Below are positions 10,021-24,724 of a stretch of DNA of 37,263 nucleotides, in pieces (position 1 is the stretch's first letter; every line of letters begins with the position of its first letter). The stretch comes from a virus: UHGV virus genome UHGV-0198870; one strand, given 5' to 3'. The position numbers and the translations under genes are program-made. The notes beneath the pieces are model-generated. The model did not search any database. It worked only from the letters and a program-made list of their open reading frames with translations, and was not told where the DNA came from.

Positions 10021-10049
10021 TTGACATAGAACGCATAAAAATATATAAT
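10021..10049 (+). promoter_or_regulatory. Consensus sigmaA promoter of the hicAB-chaperone operon
   Basis: TTGACA (10021-10026), 17 nt, TATAAT (10044-10049). Confidence 0.9.
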
Positions 10050-14871: not shown

Positions 14872-16536
14872 ATGCGGGATGATTACAAAATTAAGATGGC
14901 CGGTAAGATCGCAGCCAGATATCAGGATTTGGAAGAACGAATCATGCAAGACATTGTTCGAAGGGTTGTTAAAACTGGTGAGATCACCAGCACTGCAGAT
15001 TGGCAGATTAATCGGTTACGGATCCTGGGACATTCTTCAGAGGATATCGAACGTGAGATAAAGAAGACGCTCAATGCTTCCTATCCGGAAATGTTTGAGC
15101 TGTACGATAAGGTAATCGAAAAGGAATATGTTCGAGATAAGGATGTATATGAACAGATCAATGCAGAATATATACCGTATGATCAGAACGAGCAGCTTAA
15201 TCAGATCACAGAAGCAATTATCGATCAGAGTTGTGAAGATTTGGAGAATGTAACCAATTCGCTTGGATTCTATTTGGATTATGGAAATGATAGGAAGGTA
15301 CTGACACCACTTGCTCAGGTGTATTCCGGATATCTGGATGCAGCATGTTATGATATCGCAACCGGTGCGTTTGATTATAACAGTGTCCTGAGACGAGTAG
15401 TTACACAGCTCACGAACAGCGGACTCAGGAAGATAGATTACTCATCCGGACGAGCTGATCGGGTGGATGTGGCTGCAAGACGAGCTGTTATGACAGCGGT
15501 CAGCCAGATGACCGGAAAGATATCCGAGTACAATGCTCAGAAGCTCGGAACAGAGTATTTTGAGGTTGAGTGGCATGCAGGTGCACGACCGACTCATGCA
15601 GTATGGCAGGGGCGTGTCTGGTCCAAGGAACAGTTGTATTCGATATGTGGTCTGGGGACGGTCACGGGACTTCTTGGTGTGAATTGTTATCATACCTATT
15701 ATCCTTTCTTTCCCGGACTGTCAGAACGTAACTGGACAGATGAATGGTTGGATGCCAAGAATCTGGAAGAGAGTGAACCGAAGAAATTTAGGGATAAGGA
15801 ATATACCCTGTATGAGGCTAAGCAGAGACAGCGGCAGATGGAAGTAGCAATGAGAGCACAGAGAGAAAAGGTCCGCTTGCTCCAGAAAGGCAAGGCGGAT
15901 CCAGATGAAATTCTGTTGCATAAAGCAAAATACCAAGGACAGCTTAATGAGTATTCCAGATTCTGCCGGAAGATGAAGCTTACTGAAGAACGTGAGCGTA
16001 TTTATTTGGACACGAAAGGTCGAGTGGCAACGAATAGCAAACGACAGAATGCATTGTTCCCGCGTGAAATGATCGAGAATGCATCCAAAGATGTGGCTCA
16101 GTATAAGCGGTATAAGGAAGTTTTGGGAGATTCTATTGGTTCGCTTGTTAATTTTGGTCAGATGAAATATAATGATAATGAGAAATGGAAAGCTATCAGT
16201 GAAGTATTTACAGATGTAAAATGGCAGAATCAAGCACTAAAGAAAAAACAAATAGGAGAAGTCCATTCTATCCCGTATAAAGGAACTCCGAATAGCGTGT
16301 TTGATAACTACAAAGACGGTGTCTTGCAGAGACGTAGATATTATGGAAATGATGGAAGACCAAGATTAGATATAGATATGACGGATCACGGAAATTCAAA
16401 AGAACATCCGGTTGTACCGCATTATCATAACTGGTATCTTGATGAAAAAGGCAATTTGAAACGTGAAGCAAAGCATGATAATCCACTTAAATTAGGGCAT
16501 GAAATTGCCAATAAGGATATTCTTGAGAAGAGGTGA
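14872..16536 (+). CDS. Minor capsid (MuF-type, Phage_min_cap2) protein with C-terminal toxin-like domain
   Basis: HAGARPTHAVWQG and NCYH motifs; C-terminal RRYYGNDGRPRLDIDMTDHGNSKEHPVVPHYHNW extension. Confidence 0.85.
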   Translation: MRDDYKIKMAGKIAARYQDLEERIMQDIVRRVVKTGEITSTADWQINRLRILGHSSEDIEREIKKTLNASYPEMFELYDKVIEKEYVRDKDVYEQINAEYIPYDQNEQLNQITEAIIDQSCEDLENVTNSLGFYLDYGNDRKVLTPLAQVYSGYLDAACYDIATGAFDYNSVLRRVVTQLTNSGLRKIDYSSGRADRVDVAARRAVMTAVSQMTGKISEYNAQKLGTEYFEVEWHAGARPTHAVWQGRVWSKEQLYSICGLGTVTGLLGVNCYHTYYPFFPGLSERNWTDEWLDAKNLEESEPKKFRDKEYTLYEAKQRQRQMEVAMRAQREKVRLLQKGKADPDEILLHKAKYQGQLNEYSRFCRKMKLTEERERIYLDTKGRVATNSKRQNALFPREMIENASKDVAQYKRYKEVLGDSIGSLVNFGQMKYNDNEKWKAISEVFTDVKWQNQALKKKQIGEVHSIPYKGTPNSVFDNYKDGVLQRRRYYGNDGRPRLDIDMTDHGNSKEHPVVPHYHNWYLDEKGNLKREAKHDNPLKLGHEIANKDILEKR

Positions 16537-16543
16537 TCAGAAT

Positions 16544-16804
16544 ATGATTGAGTACAAAAAATATGCAAAATTTGAGAATCTATCTGAGTTGACAGAAGCT
16601 ATAGAGGCAGGATTGGATATTGAGCTCGCTCTTTCTGAGAAAAGATATAATATTTCATGGAGAGATGATAAACCATTTATATGTGAGTGCCCTGAAGGAG
16701 AAGCTGAGTTTTATTCTGATGCTCAGGAGATGCTCGATAAGCACAAAATAAACAACATACCATTAAATAAATTGTGGGAGGATATAGAAATATTATCCAT
16801 GTAG
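16544..16804 (+). CDS. Putative cognate immunity protein
   Basis: Small acidic ORF 7 nt after the toxin-bearing gene, GAGGTGA SD, followed by terminator. Confidence 0.65.
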   Translation: MIEYKKYAKFENLSELTEAIEAGLDIELALSEKRYNISWRDDKPFICECPEGEAEFYSDAQEMLDKHKINNIPLNKLWEDIEILSM

Positions 16805-16805
16805 T

Positions 16806-16840
16806 TACCACCAGTCGAAAAATGACCGGTGGTATTTTTG
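16806..16840 (+). terminator. Intrinsic terminator
   Basis: TACCACCAGTC-loop-GACCGGTGGTA then TTTTT. Confidence 0.7.
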
Positions 16841-16861
16841 TACGTAATTTTAGGAGAAAGT

Positions 16862-17152
16862 ATGATAAATGTAGAAATAACAGAGCGTAGTATTCGTTTA
16901 TCTGGCCATGCTTGCAGAAAAGCTTCAGATGGTATTGACCGGGCATGCGCTGCAGTATCGGCACTTACTTGCAGCTTGATTAATTCGTTACAAGATCTTA
17001 CACACGACAGAGTTCAAGCAATGGCGGAAAGCGGAATGACAGTAATCAGATGGGAGAATTTATCAGATGGCGGGAAACTTCTGGTAGATTCATGGTTCCT
17101 GGGACTTACAGATGTCAACCGGGAATACAACTGCATAGAATTTCAAAAATAA
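16862..17152 (+). CDS. prp: Phage-encoded ribosomal-processing cysteine protease Prp
   Basis: SGHA and ACAAVSAL catalytic His/Cys motifs; AGGAG SD. Confidence 0.85.
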   Translation: MINVEITERSIRLSGHACRKASDGIDRACAAVSALTCSLINSLQDLTHDRVQAMAESGMTVIRWENLSDGGKLLVDSWFLGLTDVNREYNCIEFQK

Positions 17153-17240: not shown

Positions 17241-17849
17241 ATGAGATACAGAATGAATTTACAGCTCTTTGAAGACGGCGGCGGAGCTGGCTCTGGTAAT
17301 CAGGGTGGAAACGCTGGGACTGGAAACGGCGGTCAGGGATCCGCTGGGAGCGCATCCGGAGCACATGGAACCGGAACATATACCTATGAACAGTTGGAAG
17401 AGATTGCAGGTGCACGAGTAGAGAGGTCTGAGCGGACAGCTCTTGCCAATTTTTTCAGAAATCAGGGCATGACAGAATCTGAGGTAACACAGGCAATCAA
17501 TAATTTCAAAGCAGAGCGTGCGGCTAATCAGCCAAATACTGCAAAATTGCAGAAAGATCTTGATGATGCGCTGGCGAAAGTACAGCAGATGGAGAATGAG
17601 AAGACTTTATCTGGTAAAGGTGTTAGATCAGAAGATTTGGATTATGTCATGTTCAAGGTATCGAAACTTGTAGATGATAAAACAACATTTGAAAAAGCTG
17701 CAGACAAATTTTTGAAGGAGAATCCGAAATTTACAGGAAATGCCGGTTCTTATCGCATTTCCACATCTTCTGGAAATTCTTCAGAAGGTTCTGGTGGAAA
17801 CATGAACGCTTCCATCAATGATCGTATCCGTGCTGCAGCGAGAAGATAA
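17241..17849 (+). CDS. Capsid scaffolding protein
   Basis: MNLQLF leader, Gly-rich linker, coiled coil; precedes major capsid gene. Confidence 0.85.
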   Translation: MRYRMNLQLFEDGGGAGSGNQGGNAGTGNGGQGSAGSASGAHGTGTYTYEQLEEIAGARVERSERTALANFFRNQGMTESEVTQAINNFKAERAANQPNTAKLQKDLDDALAKVQQMENEKTLSGKGVRSEDLDYVMFKVSKLVDDKTTFEKAADKFLKENPKFTGNAGSYRISTSSGNSSEGSGGNMNASINDRIRAAARR

Positions 17850-17861
17850 CGGAGGTAGAAG

Positions 17862-18842
17862 ATGAATAAAAACAGAATGAATTTAAGGCTTTTTGAGAAT
17901 GATGTCAACATTATTGATCGAAGCGGTGCAGAATCTTTGATTCCAGTACAGGAATCAAATGAGATCATTCAGGGTGTTATTGCTCAGTCAGCTGTTCTTT
18001 CAAGAGGACGTAAGCTGCCAAATATGACAAGTAAGCAGTACAAGATGCCAGTACTGGATATGTTGCCAATTGCTTATTTTGTGAACGGTGATTCAGGACA
18101 GAAGAAAACGACCAAGCAGGCATGGGATAAGAAGTTTATTATTGCGGAAGAAATTGCGGTAATTGTACCGATTCCAGAGTCCGTATTAGATGATTCAGAC
18201 TATGATATTTGGGGCGAGGTGAAACCGAGGGTAACAGAAGCATTCGGAACAAAGATTGATGGAGCTGCATTATTCGGAGTAGATAAACCGTCTACTTGGA
18301 GAGATGATATAGTAGCTACTGCAACAAAAGCTGGAAGTGTAGTAACGCTTGGTTCTGCTGATCCACTGTACGATAAGATTATGGCGGAAGAAGGCGTTCT
18401 TGACAAAGTTGAAAAATGCGGATACTTAGTGAATGGTCATATGGCTGATGTTTCTATGAGGGCAAAGCTCCGAGGATTAAAGAATGCTAACGGCGATCCA
18501 CTGTTTAAATCAGATATGCAGGGATCTACGCAGTATGCATTGGATGGTTCTCCGATGAATTTCCCGATCAATGGAGCATGGGATAAATCTAAGGCCCTGA
18601 TGGTCTCCGGAGATTTCTCGCAGCTTGTATATTCTATCAGACAGGATATTACATTCAAGCTGTTTACAGAAGGTGTTGTACAGAATACAGACGGAACTAT
18701 CGCATACAACCTGATGCAGAACGATATGGTTGCACTTCGTGCAGTTATGCGTATGGGTTGGGAAGTTCCAAATCCTATCAATGCACTTGCAAAAGAAAAG
18801 ACAAAGAGATGCCCGTTCTCGATTCTGAAAGCGGGAGAGTAG
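17862..18842 (+). CDS. Major capsid protein
   Basis: MNLRLF leader; EEIAVIVPI, GDFSQ, QNDMVALR motifs. Confidence 0.92.
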   Translation: MNKNRMNLRLFENDVNIIDRSGAESLIPVQESNEIIQGVIAQSAVLSRGRKLPNMTSKQYKMPVLDMLPIAYFVNGDSGQKKTTKQAWDKKFIIAEEIAVIVPIPESVLDDSDYDIWGEVKPRVTEAFGTKIDGAALFGVDKPSTWRDDIVATATKAGSVVTLGSADPLYDKIMAEEGVLDKVEKCGYLVNGHMADVSMRAKLRGLKNANGDPLFKSDMQGSTQYALDGSPMNFPINGAWDKSKALMVSGDFSQLVYSIRQDITFKLFTEGVVQNTDGTIAYNLMQNDMVALRAVMRMGWEVPNPINALAKEKTKRCPFSILKAGE

Positions 18843-20434: not shown

Positions 20435-20938
20435 ATGTCAGGAGATAATAAAAAGAGATTAGTAGGCAGACATAAGCGTGTTGCGTTTATGGATGTTGCA
20501 GGTGACGGTAAGACATTTACCAGAATGACGGGATTCACATCAATGTCAGATGGGAAAAATTCTACCGAATACAGCAGGCAGTATGTGGATGAAGAAAGTG
20601 AACGTTCAGATGTGGTAGGGTACGCTCCATCTATGGATTACGAATTTGATTTACATACAAATGATGCGGTGCTGAAAAGGCTTGCGACGATTACAGATGA
20701 TGAACTTCTGGGATCGGATGCACAGGTGAACATTGTAATGGTGGATCTTTTTGAGGTTAAGACAGAAGATCCGAATACTTGCACAGCAAGAAAACGTGAC
20801 TGGAGCGTGATTCCGGATACGGAAGGTGATGGAACGGATGCACTGATCTACAAAGGAAGCTTTAAAGCAGCCGGAAAGATTACAAAAGGAACTGCCACAA
20901 CTACAGATGACTGGCAGACATGTACATTTGCGGAATAA
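20435..20938 (+). CDS. Major tail tube protein
   Basis: EYSRQYVDE..SDVVGYAPS motif; position. Confidence 0.8.
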   Translation: MSGDNKKRLVGRHKRVAFMDVAGDGKTFTRMTGFTSMSDGKNSTEYSRQYVDEESERSDVVGYAPSMDYEFDLHTNDAVLKRLATITDDELLGSDAQVNIVMVDLFEVKTEDPNTCTARKRDWSVIPDTEGDGTDALIYKGSFKAAGKITKGTATTTDDWQTCTFAE

Positions 20939-20952
20939 AGAAAGATAGGAGA

Positions 20953-20967
20953 GTGAGCCGATGAGCC
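20953..20967 (+). promoter_or_regulatory. GTGAGCCGATGAGCC motif over chaperone start codon
   Basis: 14/15 identical to motif at 22101-22115. Confidence 0.6.
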
Positions 20968-21365
20968 TTTTTAAATTTGGAGATTTTGAAGCGGAAGTGG
21001 ATTTTACAGATGCTGATTTTTTGACGGACTTGGAATATGCACAAGAGAAGCTGTCGGAAGATGCAGCTAAAGTTCCAAAGACAGGGAAAACAGCAGAATT
21101 GTTTAGAGCTCAGTGTCAGTGCTATTTTAACTTTTTCGATTATCTTTTCGGGGAAGGAACGCATGAAGCTATGTTTCAAGGGAGAACAAGTTATAAATTA
21201 TGTATAGAAGCAGGAGAGAAACTTTCAGAATGTGAAAATACTCAGACAGAAGAGTTCTTCGAAAAATATGATCGATATAACGTGCAGGAACATGGAAACA
21301 GACAGCAGAGACGTTATTACAACAAACAGCAGGGAAAGAAAAAGAAGCAGCATTACAAAGGGTAA
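20961..21365 (+). CDS. Tail assembly chaperone
   Basis: FFDYLFGEGT motif, NRQQRR basic tail; follows tail tube. Confidence 0.8.
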   Translation: MSLFKFGDFEAEVDFTDADFLTDLEYAQEKLSEDAAKVPKTGKTAELFRAQCQCYFNFFDYLFGEGTHEAMFQGRTSYKLCIEAGEKLSECENTQTEEFFEKYDRYNVQEHGNRQQRRYYNKQQGKKKKQHYKG

Positions 21366-21371
21366 AATGTT

Positions 21372-21941
21372 ATGAATATTTTATTCGAAGAATTTCCGAA
21401 AACAGTCAGAGTAAATGGAGAAAGATTCTTAGTTGAAACCGATTTTAGAGAATGGATCCGTTTTATACAATTGATTGATGATGCCAAAGTCCCTTGGCAA
21501 ATTAAGTGCCGACTGTTGTTGCAGTGGTACATAGATGGGATTCCGGATGATCTGGAAACAGCAGTTTATGCATTGGGTGATTTTCTGGCAATGAAAACAG
21601 AAAACGCAGAAGAGGATGAGAGTATTACCGGATCTGCACCGAAGCAATTGTATTCTTTTGAACAAGATGCAGAGTGTATTTACAGTGCATTCCGAGAGGT
21701 GTATGGAATTAATCTGCAGACGATTCCGTATATGCACTGGTGGGAGTTCCAGATATTGTTTGCTGGCCTTCCGGAAAAGACAGAGATCAAACAGAGAATT
21801 ATGTACCGGAGCATAGATCTCCGGACAATTAAAGATAAGGACGAGCGTAAGAGAATTAAAAAGATACAGGAGATAGTTGCGCTGAAAAAGAAGAATCGGA
21901 GAAAAATGACAGATTATGAGATTGGAGAAATGTTTGCGTGA
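21372..21941 (+). CDS. Gp15-family tail assembly protein (A118-like)
   Basis: TDFREWI, D..CIYSAF...YGINL, MHWWEF, IMYR. Confidence 0.88.
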   Translation: MNILFEEFPKTVRVNGERFLVETDFREWIRFIQLIDDAKVPWQIKCRLLLQWYIDGIPDDLETAVYALGDFLAMKTENAEEDESITGSAPKQLYSFEQDAECIYSAFREVYGINLQTIPYMHWWEFQILFAGLPEKTEIKQRIMYRSIDLRTIKDKDERKRIKKIQEIVALKKKNRRKMTDYEIGEMFA

Positions 21942-22093
21942 TGGAGCATATGATTAAGATCCCGACAGAAAGAAAGTGGTTCCGGTGTCCTTATTGCGGT
22001 AAGAAGTTATTAATATACGATAATACAGCCAAATGTGAAGGGATATATATTAACTGTCGGGAGTGTAAAAGAGAAGTAAAAATAAAGATATAA
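21941..22093 (+). CDS. Com-like zinc-ribbon protein (50 aa, not in ORF track)
   Basis: MEHMIKIPTERKWFRCPYCGKKLL...IYINCRECKREVKIKI; two CxxC pairs; TGATG coupling. Confidence 0.8.
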   Translation: MEHMIKIPTERKWFRCPYCGKKLLIYDNTAKCEGIYINCRECKREVKIKI

Positions 22094-22100
22094 AGCACAT

Positions 22101-22151
22101 GTGAGCCGTTGAGCCGTGCTATCAGAAAGGATGATAGTATGGCAGACGGCT
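22101..22151 (+). promoter_or_regulatory. Hairpin sequestering tape-measure start codon, with tandem GAGCC motif
   Basis: 22113-22124 pairs with 22132-22143 (SD in loop, ATG 22139 in stem); 22104-22109 pairs with 22146-22151. Confidence 0.75.
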
Positions 22152-24724
22152 ATTTAAATTTTGATACCAAGATAAATGAAAAGGGATTTAATGACGGTAT
22201 AAGTAAGCTTGGAAAACTTGGAAAATCTGGATTATCTATTGTAAGCAAAGCAATGACCGGGACGATTGCAGCAGTCGGAACCGGAGCTGCAGCGATTATA
22301 AAATCGTCACTCGGTGTAGTTGCCAACATGGAGCAACAGGTAGGTGGTGTAGAGACTCTATTCAAGGACAGTGCGAATACGGTCATAGCAAACGCAAATA
22401 AAGCATACAAGACTGCGGGAATGTCCGCAAACAATTACATGGAAACAGTGACAAGCTTTTCTGCATCACTGTTACAGAGCCTTGGTGGAGATACTGCAAA
22501 GGCAGCATCTTATGCGGATCGTGCCATTGTAGATATGTCTGATAATGCTAATAAGATGGGCACGAATATGCGTGACATCCAGAATGCTTATCAGGGTTTT
22601 GCAAAACAGAATTACACCATGCTAGATAACTTAAAGCTTGGGTATGGCGGTACTCAGGAAGAGATGAAACGTCTCATTTCTGATGCGTCAAAGATGACTG
22701 ATGTCCAGAAAGAACTTGGTGTTACAGCCGATGCAAGCAGCTTGTCCTTCGGAAATATTGTAAATGCTATTAGTGTTGTCCAAAAGCAGATGGGAATCAC
22801 TGGGACTACTTCGAAAGAAGCAGCGACTACAATTGAAGGTTCTGTGAATTCTGCCAAAGCAGCTTGGGAAAACTTTGAAGCTGGAGTTATAAGTGCAAAT
22901 GACCTTGTAGAGACATTCTGGACTGCAGCGCAGAATATCTTTAAAAATTTAGGGCAGATCATTCCAAGATTAGGAAAAACGGGGATGGATGTTGTCAGCG
23001 CACTTGCCGGAAAAATTGGTGAGGCCGTTCCGCAAGTAAAAGGTTTTACTGATAGTATTTCCAAATTAGCAAATGAGCTGAAGGGAATGAACAGTGATCA
23101 ACTGTTGAATCTTGGAAAAATGGCAGTGGTAATTGCCGGATCGGCTCCGGCGCTGTCCATATTTGGAAAAGGGATTGAAAATATAAAAACTGCAACCGAT
23201 GGATTTAATGGCATTATAGACGGAGTTGTCACATCTATAGGTAAAGTACCTAAAGGGGCAAAGAGTGCCAGTGCCACATTCAAAAAGATAGGTAGCGAGT
23301 TCAAATATCTCGGTGAAAGCATCGCGCTTCCATTCCAGGATCTGGGAGAAAAAATAGCTCCCCGACTGAAAGATCTTGGTGGATTTATGGCTGAGTCCTG
23401 GACAAATGGTCCGGGAGGAAAGATTACTGGAGCTGTAACTGATACTGTTAAAAAGATAGGTGGAGCTATTGGACAAATTGGTCCTAAGCTTGCTGAAAAG
23501 TTCCCTGGAATAACAAAGAAATTTGCAGAGCTTGGAACAAAGATATCCGAATACGCCGGCTTTATCGGAGATGCGTTTACACCGATTTTATCAAGAGTAG
23601 CGTCCTTTGCACCGACATTCTTTAAGCTGATCAACATCGGCGCAGGAGCGGCAATCATTGTTGCTGGTATGGGATTGATCTACAGTCAGTTCGGTACACA
23701 GATTGATCAGCTGTTATTGCTTGTGCAGACAAAAGGACCGGAAGTAATCACGAACTTTGCTAATGGCATTACTGCAGCATTACCAGGATTGGTTGCTCAG
23801 GGTGCAACGCTGATCATGGGAATCCTAAATGCAATTACGGTGAATCTGCCGGCATTGATTACTGCCGGAGTAAGCATTATATCCACATTGGCGAGCAGTC
23901 TGGCAGCACAATTACCTCAATTGATACCATGTGCAGTACAGATGATACTGACATTGGTCACATCATTGATAAGCAATCTTCCACAATTAATTACTTCAGG
24001 ACTTAACTTAATGAAAGGCCTCGCAAGTGGAATTGCAAATTCAATCCCATTGGTGGCAGCGAAGGCACCAGTGATTATTGGAAAGCTTGCATCGACTATC
24101 ATAACGAATCTTCCAAAGATTCTGACCGCAGGAGTGCAGATCATAAGTAAACTCGCTGTTGGACTAGTGCAGGGAATACCGGCATTGATCGGAAAGATTC
24201 CAAGCATGGTAAGCCAGATTAAGAATGCATTTACCAGTGTGAGCTGGGGCAGTGTTGGAATGAATATTATAAAGGGCATTGCCAGCGGATTAACCGGTGC
24301 AGCCGGTGCAATCGTAGAAGCGGCGAAAAGTGCAGCAAACAAAGCATTAGATGCGGCAAAGAGTGCTCTTGGAATCCATTCGCCATCCAGAGTATTCCGT
24401 GATCAGGTAGGTAAGATGATGGCTCTTGGTATGGGAATTGGATTTGAGAAGAACATTCCGATCAAGTCCATGAATGTAGGAGTACAGAGAGCAGTATCTG
24501 GATTACAGAAATCCGTAGATCTTGCATTATCGGCGAGAACTGCAGACAAGACAATCGGAAGAGTAAAGAATTATCCGGGATTCGATGGAGGAAAAGATAT
24601 CGATTATGACCGGTTAGAAAGGATCCAGATGAGAGCTGCAGAAAAAATGGCGAAGCGTCCAATCTATCTGGGAACAAAGAGAATTGATGAGCCATTACCG
24701 AAAGGAGCGGTGCCGGCATTATGA
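22139..24724 (+). CDS. Tape measure protein
   Basis: MADG start, NYTMLDNLKLGYGGT, amphipathic repeats, GIHSPSRVF. Confidence 0.95.
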   Translation: MADGYLNFDTKINEKGFNDGISKLGKLGKSGLSIVSKAMTGTIAAVGTGAAAIIKSSLGVVANMEQQVGGVETLFKDSANTVIANANKAYKTAGMSANNYMETVTSFSASLLQSLGGDTAKAASYADRAIVDMSDNANKMGTNMRDIQNAYQGFAKQNYTMLDNLKLGYGGTQEEMKRLISDASKMTDVQKELGVTADASSLSFGNIVNAISVVQKQMGITGTTSKEAATTIEGSVNSAKAAWENFEAGVISANDLVETFWTAAQNIFKNLGQIIPRLGKTGMDVVSALAGKIGEAVPQVKGFTDSISKLANELKGMNSDQLLNLGKMAVVIAGSAPALSIFGKGIENIKTATDGFNGIIDGVVTSIGKVPKGAKSASATFKKIGSEFKYLGESIALPFQDLGEKIAPRLKDLGGFMAESWTNGPGGKITGAVTDTVKKIGGAIGQIGPKLAEKFPGITKKFAELGTKISEYAGFIGDAFTPILSRVASFAPTFFKLINIGAGAAIIVAGMGLIYSQFGTQIDQLLLLVQTKGPEVITNFANGITAALPGLVAQGATLIMGILNAITVNLPALITAGVSIISTLASSLAAQLPQLIPCAVQMILTLVTSLISNLPQLITSGLNLMKGLASGIANSIPLVAAKAPVIIGKLASTIITNLPKILTAGVQIISKLAVGLVQGIPALIGKIPSMVSQIKNAFTSVSWGSVGMNIIKGIASGLTGAAGAIVEAAKSAANKALDAAKSALGIHSPSRVFRDQVGKMMALGMGIGFEKNIPIKSMNVGVQRAVSGLQKSVDLALSARTADKTIGRVKNYPGFDGGKDIDYDRLERIQMRAAEKMAKRPIYLGTKRIDEPLPKGAVPAL

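Follow-up and report, generated by a model that had tools for sequence, protein, structure and literature searches.

The stretch of DNA analysed here (37,263 nucleotides of the virus genome UHGV-0198870, below called the window) comes from a tailed phage, and genes for terminase, portal, scaffold, capsid, tape measure, Dit and endolysin were detected in it. The tail module is arranged in the order likely tail tube gene, DUF6673 gene, Gp15 gene, gene of a 50-residue zinc ribbon and tape measure gene. The named genomes nearest by the ribbon protein belong to Dorea and other Lachnospiraceae, the ribbon of Dorea amylophila showing 92% identity, and the isolated phage RG-TP1 has an identical layout of this module, in which the ribbon gene carries no annotation. 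The relevant features are as follows:

20435..20938, + strand: likely tail tube gene, 167 aa, phrog_3099 (unknown function), assigned by position
20947..20951, + strand: Shine-Dalgarno-like AGGAG of the putative chaperone, seen in the sequence and retained in relatives
20955..20967, + strand: site 1, GAGCC-GAT-GAGCC, with the AUG (20961-20963) within CC-N3-GAG; no enclosing stem, unstructured
20961..21365, + strand: putative tail assembly chaperone gene, 134 aa, DUF6673, phrog_4450, identity from position only
21372..21941, + strand: Gp15-family gene, PF06854, in the phase of the chaperone and behind its stop
21941..22093, + strand: zinc-ribbon protein gene, 50 aa, phrog_5602, its ATG overlapping the Gp15 stop (TGATG)
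22094..22120, + strand: predicted ON structure, AGCAC (22094-22098) pairing with GTGCT (22116-22120), which encloses both boxes and a C-G-closed CGUUGA hexaloop
22103..22115, + strand: site 2, GAGCC-GTT-GAGCC, a sequence match
22104..22151, + strand: predicted OFF hairpin, 7 + 12 bp, its loop holding the Shine-Dalgarno sequence (22125-22131) and its stem the tape-measure AUG (22139-22141)
22139..24724, + strand: tape measure gene, 861 aa from the ATG at 22139, matching PHROG tape-measure families (best E 2.7e-73)

The likely tail tube gene is so named because a gene at the same position is annotated as a major or main tail protein in two phages having a Gp15 relative. The gene at 20961 is regarded as a putative tail assembly chaperone because it stands between the likely tail tube gene and the tape measure gene; searches of PHROG names, of PDB sequences and with Foldseek brought no match for its product, whose structure model is confident.

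Several other features of the window deserve mention. A perfect TTGACA-17-TATAAT promoter match is situated upstream of the packaging genes (10021-10049). In another part (16829-17152, 17241-17280 and 17862-17900), a peptidase gene of phrog_4478 precedes the scaffold and capsid genes, whose products bear the N-terminal motifs LQLFE and LRLFE, an arrangement which we take to resemble Prp-type processing. At 14872-16804, the C-terminal stretch of the minor head protein matches a PHROG 'toxin' family (E 1.5e-8), and an overlapping 101-aa gene comes next; together they have the appearance of a MuF-type toxin/immunity pair.

In the window, the putative chaperone gene and the Gp15 gene stand in the same phase with a stop between them. 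A lambda-type heptamer, G GGA AAG, is present in phase near the chaperone end (21332-21338), and it is non-productive because Gp15, in phase 0 behind the stop, is unreachable by a -1 shift. The 33 chaperone/Gp15 junctions compared have phases 0, +1 and -1 in 8, 6 and 19 cases, respectively, and none of them contains a canonical slippery heptamer in a productive overlap, so that no conserved recoding from chaperone to Gp15 was found. Five junctions have an AAA AAA TGA end lying over the next start, where weak slippage may occur. Stop-codon readthrough from the chaperone into Gp15 was rejected, since the phase differs across the junctions. The statement of an earlier note on this DNA that no productive G/GT frameshift exists is thus upheld, and its proposal that the switch described below is tied to the missing frameshift is weak: modules without a ribbon also exist.

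Both tandem GAGCC sites of the window contain the element CC(N)2-3GAG. The pattern GAGCCNNNGAGCC, searched throughout the 37 kb with one mismatch allowed, was found only at 20955-20967 and 22103-22115, both times exactly; at least two such matches appeared in 31 of 100 shuffled sequences, which means that a 10-base pattern of this kind is by itself nothing uncommon. In contrast, the 15-mer GTGAGCCGNTGAGCC gave two matches with up to two mismatches allowed, against 0.11 expected, and none of 100 shuffles reached two; the 14/15-identical motif previously claimed at the chaperone start is present. Scanning of the window revealed no further box pairs and no second ribbon gene, a consensus promoter scan gave no + strand promoter-like site beside either box, and an Rfam search of 20700-22400 produced no match near the gathering score.

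The small protein encoded just before the tape measure, which had been missing from the list of open reading frames and was pointed out in the earlier note, was confirmed at 21941-22093. It has the pattern CxxC-x19-CxxC in 50 residues, with conserved cysteines C16, C19, C39 and C42; the first three are invariant and the fourth nearly invariant in 133 aligned relatives. Its structure model is a confident four-stranded ribbon (pLDDT 90.6). At E <= 0.001, 541 relatives were collected among 50%-identity representatives, and a profile made from the relatives, which also catches Cys_rich_KTR proteins, has matches in 102 of 401 genomes of the same family. The PDB fold search gave no match at E <= 0.001 for either the ribbon or the chaperone model, and the matches of the ribbon model in a viral structure library were uncharacterised siphovirus ribbons. 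In one locus (L362) a two-domain ribbon protein is followed by six GAGCC copies.

At the protein level, the likeness to Com of phage Mu is not distinctive. The Com family PF10122 gave no row at E <= 0.1 with the window ribbon, the gathering cut-off of 22.9 bits not being reached; this family is absent among the 25 of 53 families listed for 12 ribbon relatives, and the nearest genome, with a close relative of the ribbon, also has no PF10122 match. The ribbon profile matches the Com alignment with a probability of 95.8 and Mu Com with 91, but unrelated ribbons score 79-96, and in the control the Com members (85-94) did no better than these. Protein homology as a proof of Com membership was rejected for this reason. 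The nearest named family for the profile of the relatives is Cys_rich_KTR, PF14205 (probability 96-97), which is matched by 6 of the 12 relatives (best E 1.6e-6); the window ribbon itself reaches 13 bits (E 0.091), below the gathering cut-off of 25.5 bits. The designation 'Com-like' in the earlier note is consequently supported by the RNA context and not by the protein, and, going by that context, the ribbon likely works like Com.

The leader of the tape measure gene is predicted to adopt two alternative RNA structures. The OFF hairpin folds with -30.6 kcal/mol and z -6.61, and none of 200 shuffles was equally low; of the pairs previously counted in it (12 + 6), the 12 were found again, and the other stem has 7. 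The ON stem, a competing AGCAC/GTGCT pairing overlooked in the earlier note, shares the GTGCT strand with the OFF hairpin, so that the two structures are mutually exclusive. For transcripts ending at 22122-22135, the minimum-energy fold is the ON structure with its C-G-closed CGUUGA loop, and in this predicted nascent-RNA fold the element CC(N)2-3GAG at 22105-22114 is displayed in the closed loop at the end of the ribbon's own gene.

Both structures are conserved in evolution. Among 35 aligned leaders, two-sided changes occur in 5 of the 7 pairs of the OFF inner stem, and 95.9% of the cells are paired; covariation had been named as a check in the earlier note. The ON stem is paired in 97.7% of cells of the aligned leaders, with four rows changed from A-U to G-C; in three of these four AGCGC/GCGCT rows one OFF pair is broken and ON is preserved. 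About ten unrelated ON stem sequences were met in total, including AGCAC/GTGCT, AGCGC/GCGCT, GCTAC/GTAGC, AAGTC/GACTT, AGTAC/GTACT, CAGGC/GCCTG, CGCC/GGCG, TAAGAC/GTCTTA and GGACA/TGTCC. A survey of structures was made in 46 lineages hand-picked among box-bearing loci, 41 of which were parsed and 5 failed, their relatives not being independent. An enclosing stem of at least 4 pairs is present in 37 of the 41 parsed lineages and is better than with shuffled upstream sequence in 28 (p <= 0.05). In the OFF fold, GCC of the second box is paired in 38/41, and the start codon has two or more paired bases in 32/41; the long hairpin has z below -2 in 36/41. The GA of the boxes is invariant and often unpaired in OFF. 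The partners of the boxes in the OFF stem are conserved start codons, and such pairing alone would favour GCC. Judging from this comparative record, the predicted two-state RNA switch tied to the small zinc ribbon is real and well conserved.

Energy considerations are less simple. The OFF hairpin is about 18 kcal/mol more stable than the best ON structure (-30.6 vs -12.7), and holding the boxes unpaired in equilibrium folds raises the predicted openness of the start only slightly (from 0.34 to 0.44 in the window, for example). The Shine-Dalgarno sequence of the tape measure sits in a loop even in OFF.

The chaperone start is quite different. Its region is unstructured (z +1.95 and +1.11), and neither a masking structure nor an enclosing stem was found at this site in any of 23 lineages; binding there would hardly activate through the opening of a structure, and the simplest effect to expect is blocking. 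The exact site is present in 11 of the 21 lineages found by protein and absent in 10, or present in 19/30 when lineages found via the tape-measure motif are included. The position of the AUG inside the element is identical in all 22 carrying lineages, and the site is retained in chaperones 27-56% identical to that of the window; codon 3 encodes L, Q, H or R, its first base always being C. On a 33-row tree the site shows at least 5 gains or losses, and close relatives (L011, L015 and L056 among them) have single-base variants of it, which implies that it is dispensable in some lineages. In one clade, the L057 group, the boxes of both sites were lost together. The earlier claim of repression is hence favoured by the geometry, with the AUG in the box and no structure around it, and weakened by the 10 protein-found lineages lacking the site; the ribbon probably represses the putative chaperone, and we are less sure of this than of the activation of the tape measure.

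The boxes follow the ribbon across relatives, as the reading of the earlier note requires for the motif and the hairpin. In the redundant set of viral loci found by protein, the exact tandem stands 3' of the ribbon in 75 of 77; of the other two, one is cut by the contig end and one has variant boxes. When loci with chaperone, Gp15 and ribbon were clustered at 70% chaperone identity, 33 lineages were obtained. The tape-measure tandem is exact in 16 of the 21 lineages to which the protein search alone had led, and variant boxes occur in some of the remaining five. Two ribbon-bearing modules (L359 and L363) have no exact box at the next gene. The spacer between the boxes varies freely and the boxes themselves are constant, although distant lineages have GTGCC, GAGTGCC or mixed boxes in place of the exact tandem. 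Ribbon subfamilies with GTGCC/GAGTGCC boxes before the tape measure were observed in L404, L410, L428, L429, L378 and L384, where it is possible that protein and RNA specificity co-vary. In two loci (L199 and L206), the gene 3' of the boxes begins with a motif similar to LQLFE/LRLFE.

As a control, 42 loci were selected by Gp15 alone. In each of the ten that have a ribbon next to Gp15 there are tandem boxes, exact in 4 and variant in 6, whereas among the 32 without an adjacent ribbon 25 have none, 4 show loose matches off the start and 3 have exact boxes. Two of these three (L456 and L457) have a PF14205 ribbon about 5 kb upstream, before the scaffold gene, and boxes before the terminase, scaffold and tape measure genes, the majority of them within terminator-like hairpins. 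In the third (L458), boxes precede a likely tube gene and a likely holin gene, so assigned by sequence and position; no ribbon was found in the 10 kb examined, and the genome has one on another contig. The boxes of L456 and L457 with their ribbon some 5 kb away argue for a diffusible factor, and this pattern points to action of the ribbon in trans. One more of the 32 loci, a prophage (L421), has a true PF10122 Com above the cut-off between Gp15 and the tape measure (1286-1441, - strand), with a hairpin over the next start. Of the eight same-phylum PF10122 loci listed (Mu aside, overlaps merged), seven have GAGCC-type tandems downstream, and the remaining one has a GAGTGCC/GAGCGCC pair. Conversely, the ribbon follows in 64 of the 65 chaperone-site loci with enough flank. 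The exception (L162:3446-3850) has a deletion from the middle of Gp15 into the tape measure, by which the ribbon is gone and the chaperone site is kept; it is either a defective prophage or an assembly fault. Among the 22 chaperone starts of the Gp15 set, all four with a box belong to ribbon-bearing modules.

Taking these data together, we consider it reasonably probable that the ribbon is a Com-type RNA-binding regulator acting at both starts, likely raising the tape measure and probably lowering the chaperone. At the tape-measure start, the free leader RNA would form the long hairpin and bury the AUG; the ribbon would catch the nascent RNA in the short ON stem displaying the CC-N3-GAG hexaloop, and this capture would free the AUG. 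We hold this part with good confidence, and the opening of the hairpin by binding, proposed earlier, has strong comparative support from two covarying structures, boxes that follow the ribbon, the Com element and the Com of L421. To bridge the energy gap, capture during transcription or the help of terminating ribosomes would be needed, the latter finishing the ribbon gene 10 nt upstream. At the chaperone start, it is somewhat more probable than its denial that the ribbon, bound to the single-stranded element with the AUG inside, blocks ribosome loading. Because the ribbon gene hangs on the chaperone and Gp15 genes via close or overlapping starts, the circuit might, speculatively, delay the tape measure until the chaperone builds up and then limit itself. 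The chaperone and Gp15 would be made first, the coupled ribbon would accumulate, the tape measure would be released, and the chaperone and ribbon would be shut off. We advance only tentatively this idea of a self-limiting timer, a dual activator and repressor on one mRNA in a tail module without the classic frameshift; it would form one branch of a wide class comprising Com, Cys_rich_KTR and phrog_5602, whose members would be late regulators binding RNA and would also serve as antiterminators, each phage having several such sites.

The main competitor, which we judge rather unlikely, confines the ribbon to activation of the tape-measure start and sees in the chaperone site a sink that titrates the protein, a site for stabilisation or a remnant under weak selection. 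The absence of this site in 10/21 protein-found lineages, its repeated gains and losses, the point variants in close relatives, the lack of an enclosing stem in 23/23 lineages and the phages with a remote ribbon and no box at the chaperone start all agree with such a role, but a mere sink needs no fixed position of the AUG in the element, which is kept in 22/22 carrying lineages, and the joint loss of both boxes in the L057 group also speaks against it. Improbable, in our opinion, is coupling in cis only, where ribosomes ending the small ORF would melt the hairpin in the style of a leader peptide and the product would not bind RNA. The stop of the small ORF does lie 10 nt before the first box, abutting the ON stem, and binding alone could not overcome so large an energy gap; yet in L432 and L434 tape-measure boxes have no adjoining small ORF, the ribbon being about 5 kb away, boxes also stand at the chaperone start and in terminator-like hairpins, and the cysteines are kept as described in the 133 relatives.

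Two further explanations appear very improbable. The ribbon might be a transcription factor on a DNA direct repeat, as the boxes are repeats 8 nt apart and small four-cysteine phage proteins can bind DNA, the transcription factor Ogr of phage P2 serving as a model. Against this speak the covariation of two RNA structures in the region of the boxes, the constant placement of the boxes on the coding strand, where they either lie at a start codon or form part of the 5' arm of a terminator-like hairpin, and the promoter scan, which was negative on the + strand near both sites of the window. The long hairpin might also be a processing or stability element, for instance an RNase III-type site, with the boxes kept as a pairing arm; it has 19 bp, and its z is below -2 in most parsed lineages, but this reading explains neither why the chaperone site is unstructured nor why there is an ON stem that excludes the hairpin, and it accounts neither for a GA that is invariant yet often unpaired in OFF nor for the joint occurrence of box and ribbon. 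We thus prefer the Com-type regulator acting on RNA at both starts.

The G/GT frameshift is the main source of knowledge on the matching of chaperone supply to tape-measure synthesis in phages. In the window, a tail module free of the frameshift appears to carry a complete two-state RNA switch together with a 50-residue candidate protein. The same pair of protein and box is met widely in clostridial phages, there at terminator-like hairpins, and 3' of Cys_rich_KTR genes as well. If true, this would give a function to several unannotated families, and Com, which in the sources consulted was tested at mom, would become a general regulator of late genes that may also repress. The GTGCC and GAGTGCC lineages would be natural variants of specificity.

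Among known systems, lambda sets the supply of the tail chaperones gpG and gpGT, which bind the tape measure, by a -1 frameshift (PMC5009743, in the part available). The lambda G:GT ratio is fixed by recoding, whereas control in the window is proposed at initiation. In ANTAR antiterminators (EutV, NasT, AmiR), the protein stabilises small hexaloop structures and thereby excludes a larger inhibitory hairpin (available parts of PMC8934654 and PMC3369931). The window resembles them in that a hexaloop structure is predicted to exclude a larger inhibitory hairpin, but ANTAR targets have two hexaloop hairpins and the window has one loop in an enclosing stem. ANTAR proteins are helical and unrelated to the ribbon. 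The main text of a 2025 antiterminator review, as far as available, contains neither 'zinc' nor 'phage Mu', and no description of the present element was found in a literature search covering openly available main texts.

The Cys_rich_KTR (PF14205) genes, for which no published function was found in the partly available literature searched, also have GAGCC boxes next to them, in the 5' arm of terminator-like hairpins, with box spacing at many sites wider than in the window; two members appear to serve tape-measure boxes about 5 kb away. In L314, L317, L319, L326, L327 and L369 the Cys_rich_KTR gene ends in GAGCC...GAGCC running into a terminator-like hairpin, and six genomes have an identical copy, presumably the Tn916 orf6 region. 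Behind distant ribbons, too, GAGCC repeats were observed that belong to the 5' arm of a hairpin with a T run (L197:5131-5227, L077:6100-6190, L456, L457 and L458). The genes preceded by these sites are those for scaffold, HNH, terminase, tube or holin, and the arrangement suggests that distant ribbons may act as antiterminators.

The closest parallel is Com/mom of phage Mu. In the accessible excerpts of PMC6483171, the selection consensus of Com is GAG(N)2CC(N)2-3GAG(N)2CC, and the proposed recognition element is CC(N)2-3GAG in a hairpin loop. Compared with the same excerpts, Mu and the window, the latter going by its predicted structures, are alike in a small four-cysteine zinc protein with an RNA site ending its own gene, in CC(N)2-3GAG within a C-G-closed six-base loop and in a hairpin close by in which the following start codon is hidden. 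Other partly available sources note Com before methyltransferases (PMC3299994) and com-like genes of Pseudomonas before bacteriocin and lysis genes, their general role being called unexplored (PMC6240691). The differences are as follows. The window ribbon, unlike Com, has no PF10122 match. The boxes are GAGCC and not GAG(N)2CC, so the small hairpin of the window has only two pairs and relies on the outer stem around it. Mu Com acts on a DNA-modification gene, the window ribbon, as proposed, on the tape measure. The window has a second site over an upstream AUG, whereas Com is described as an activator, with no repressor role found in the parts of the sources available. Summarizing this comparison, the element may, in our judgement, be regarded as a variant on the Com/mom switch.
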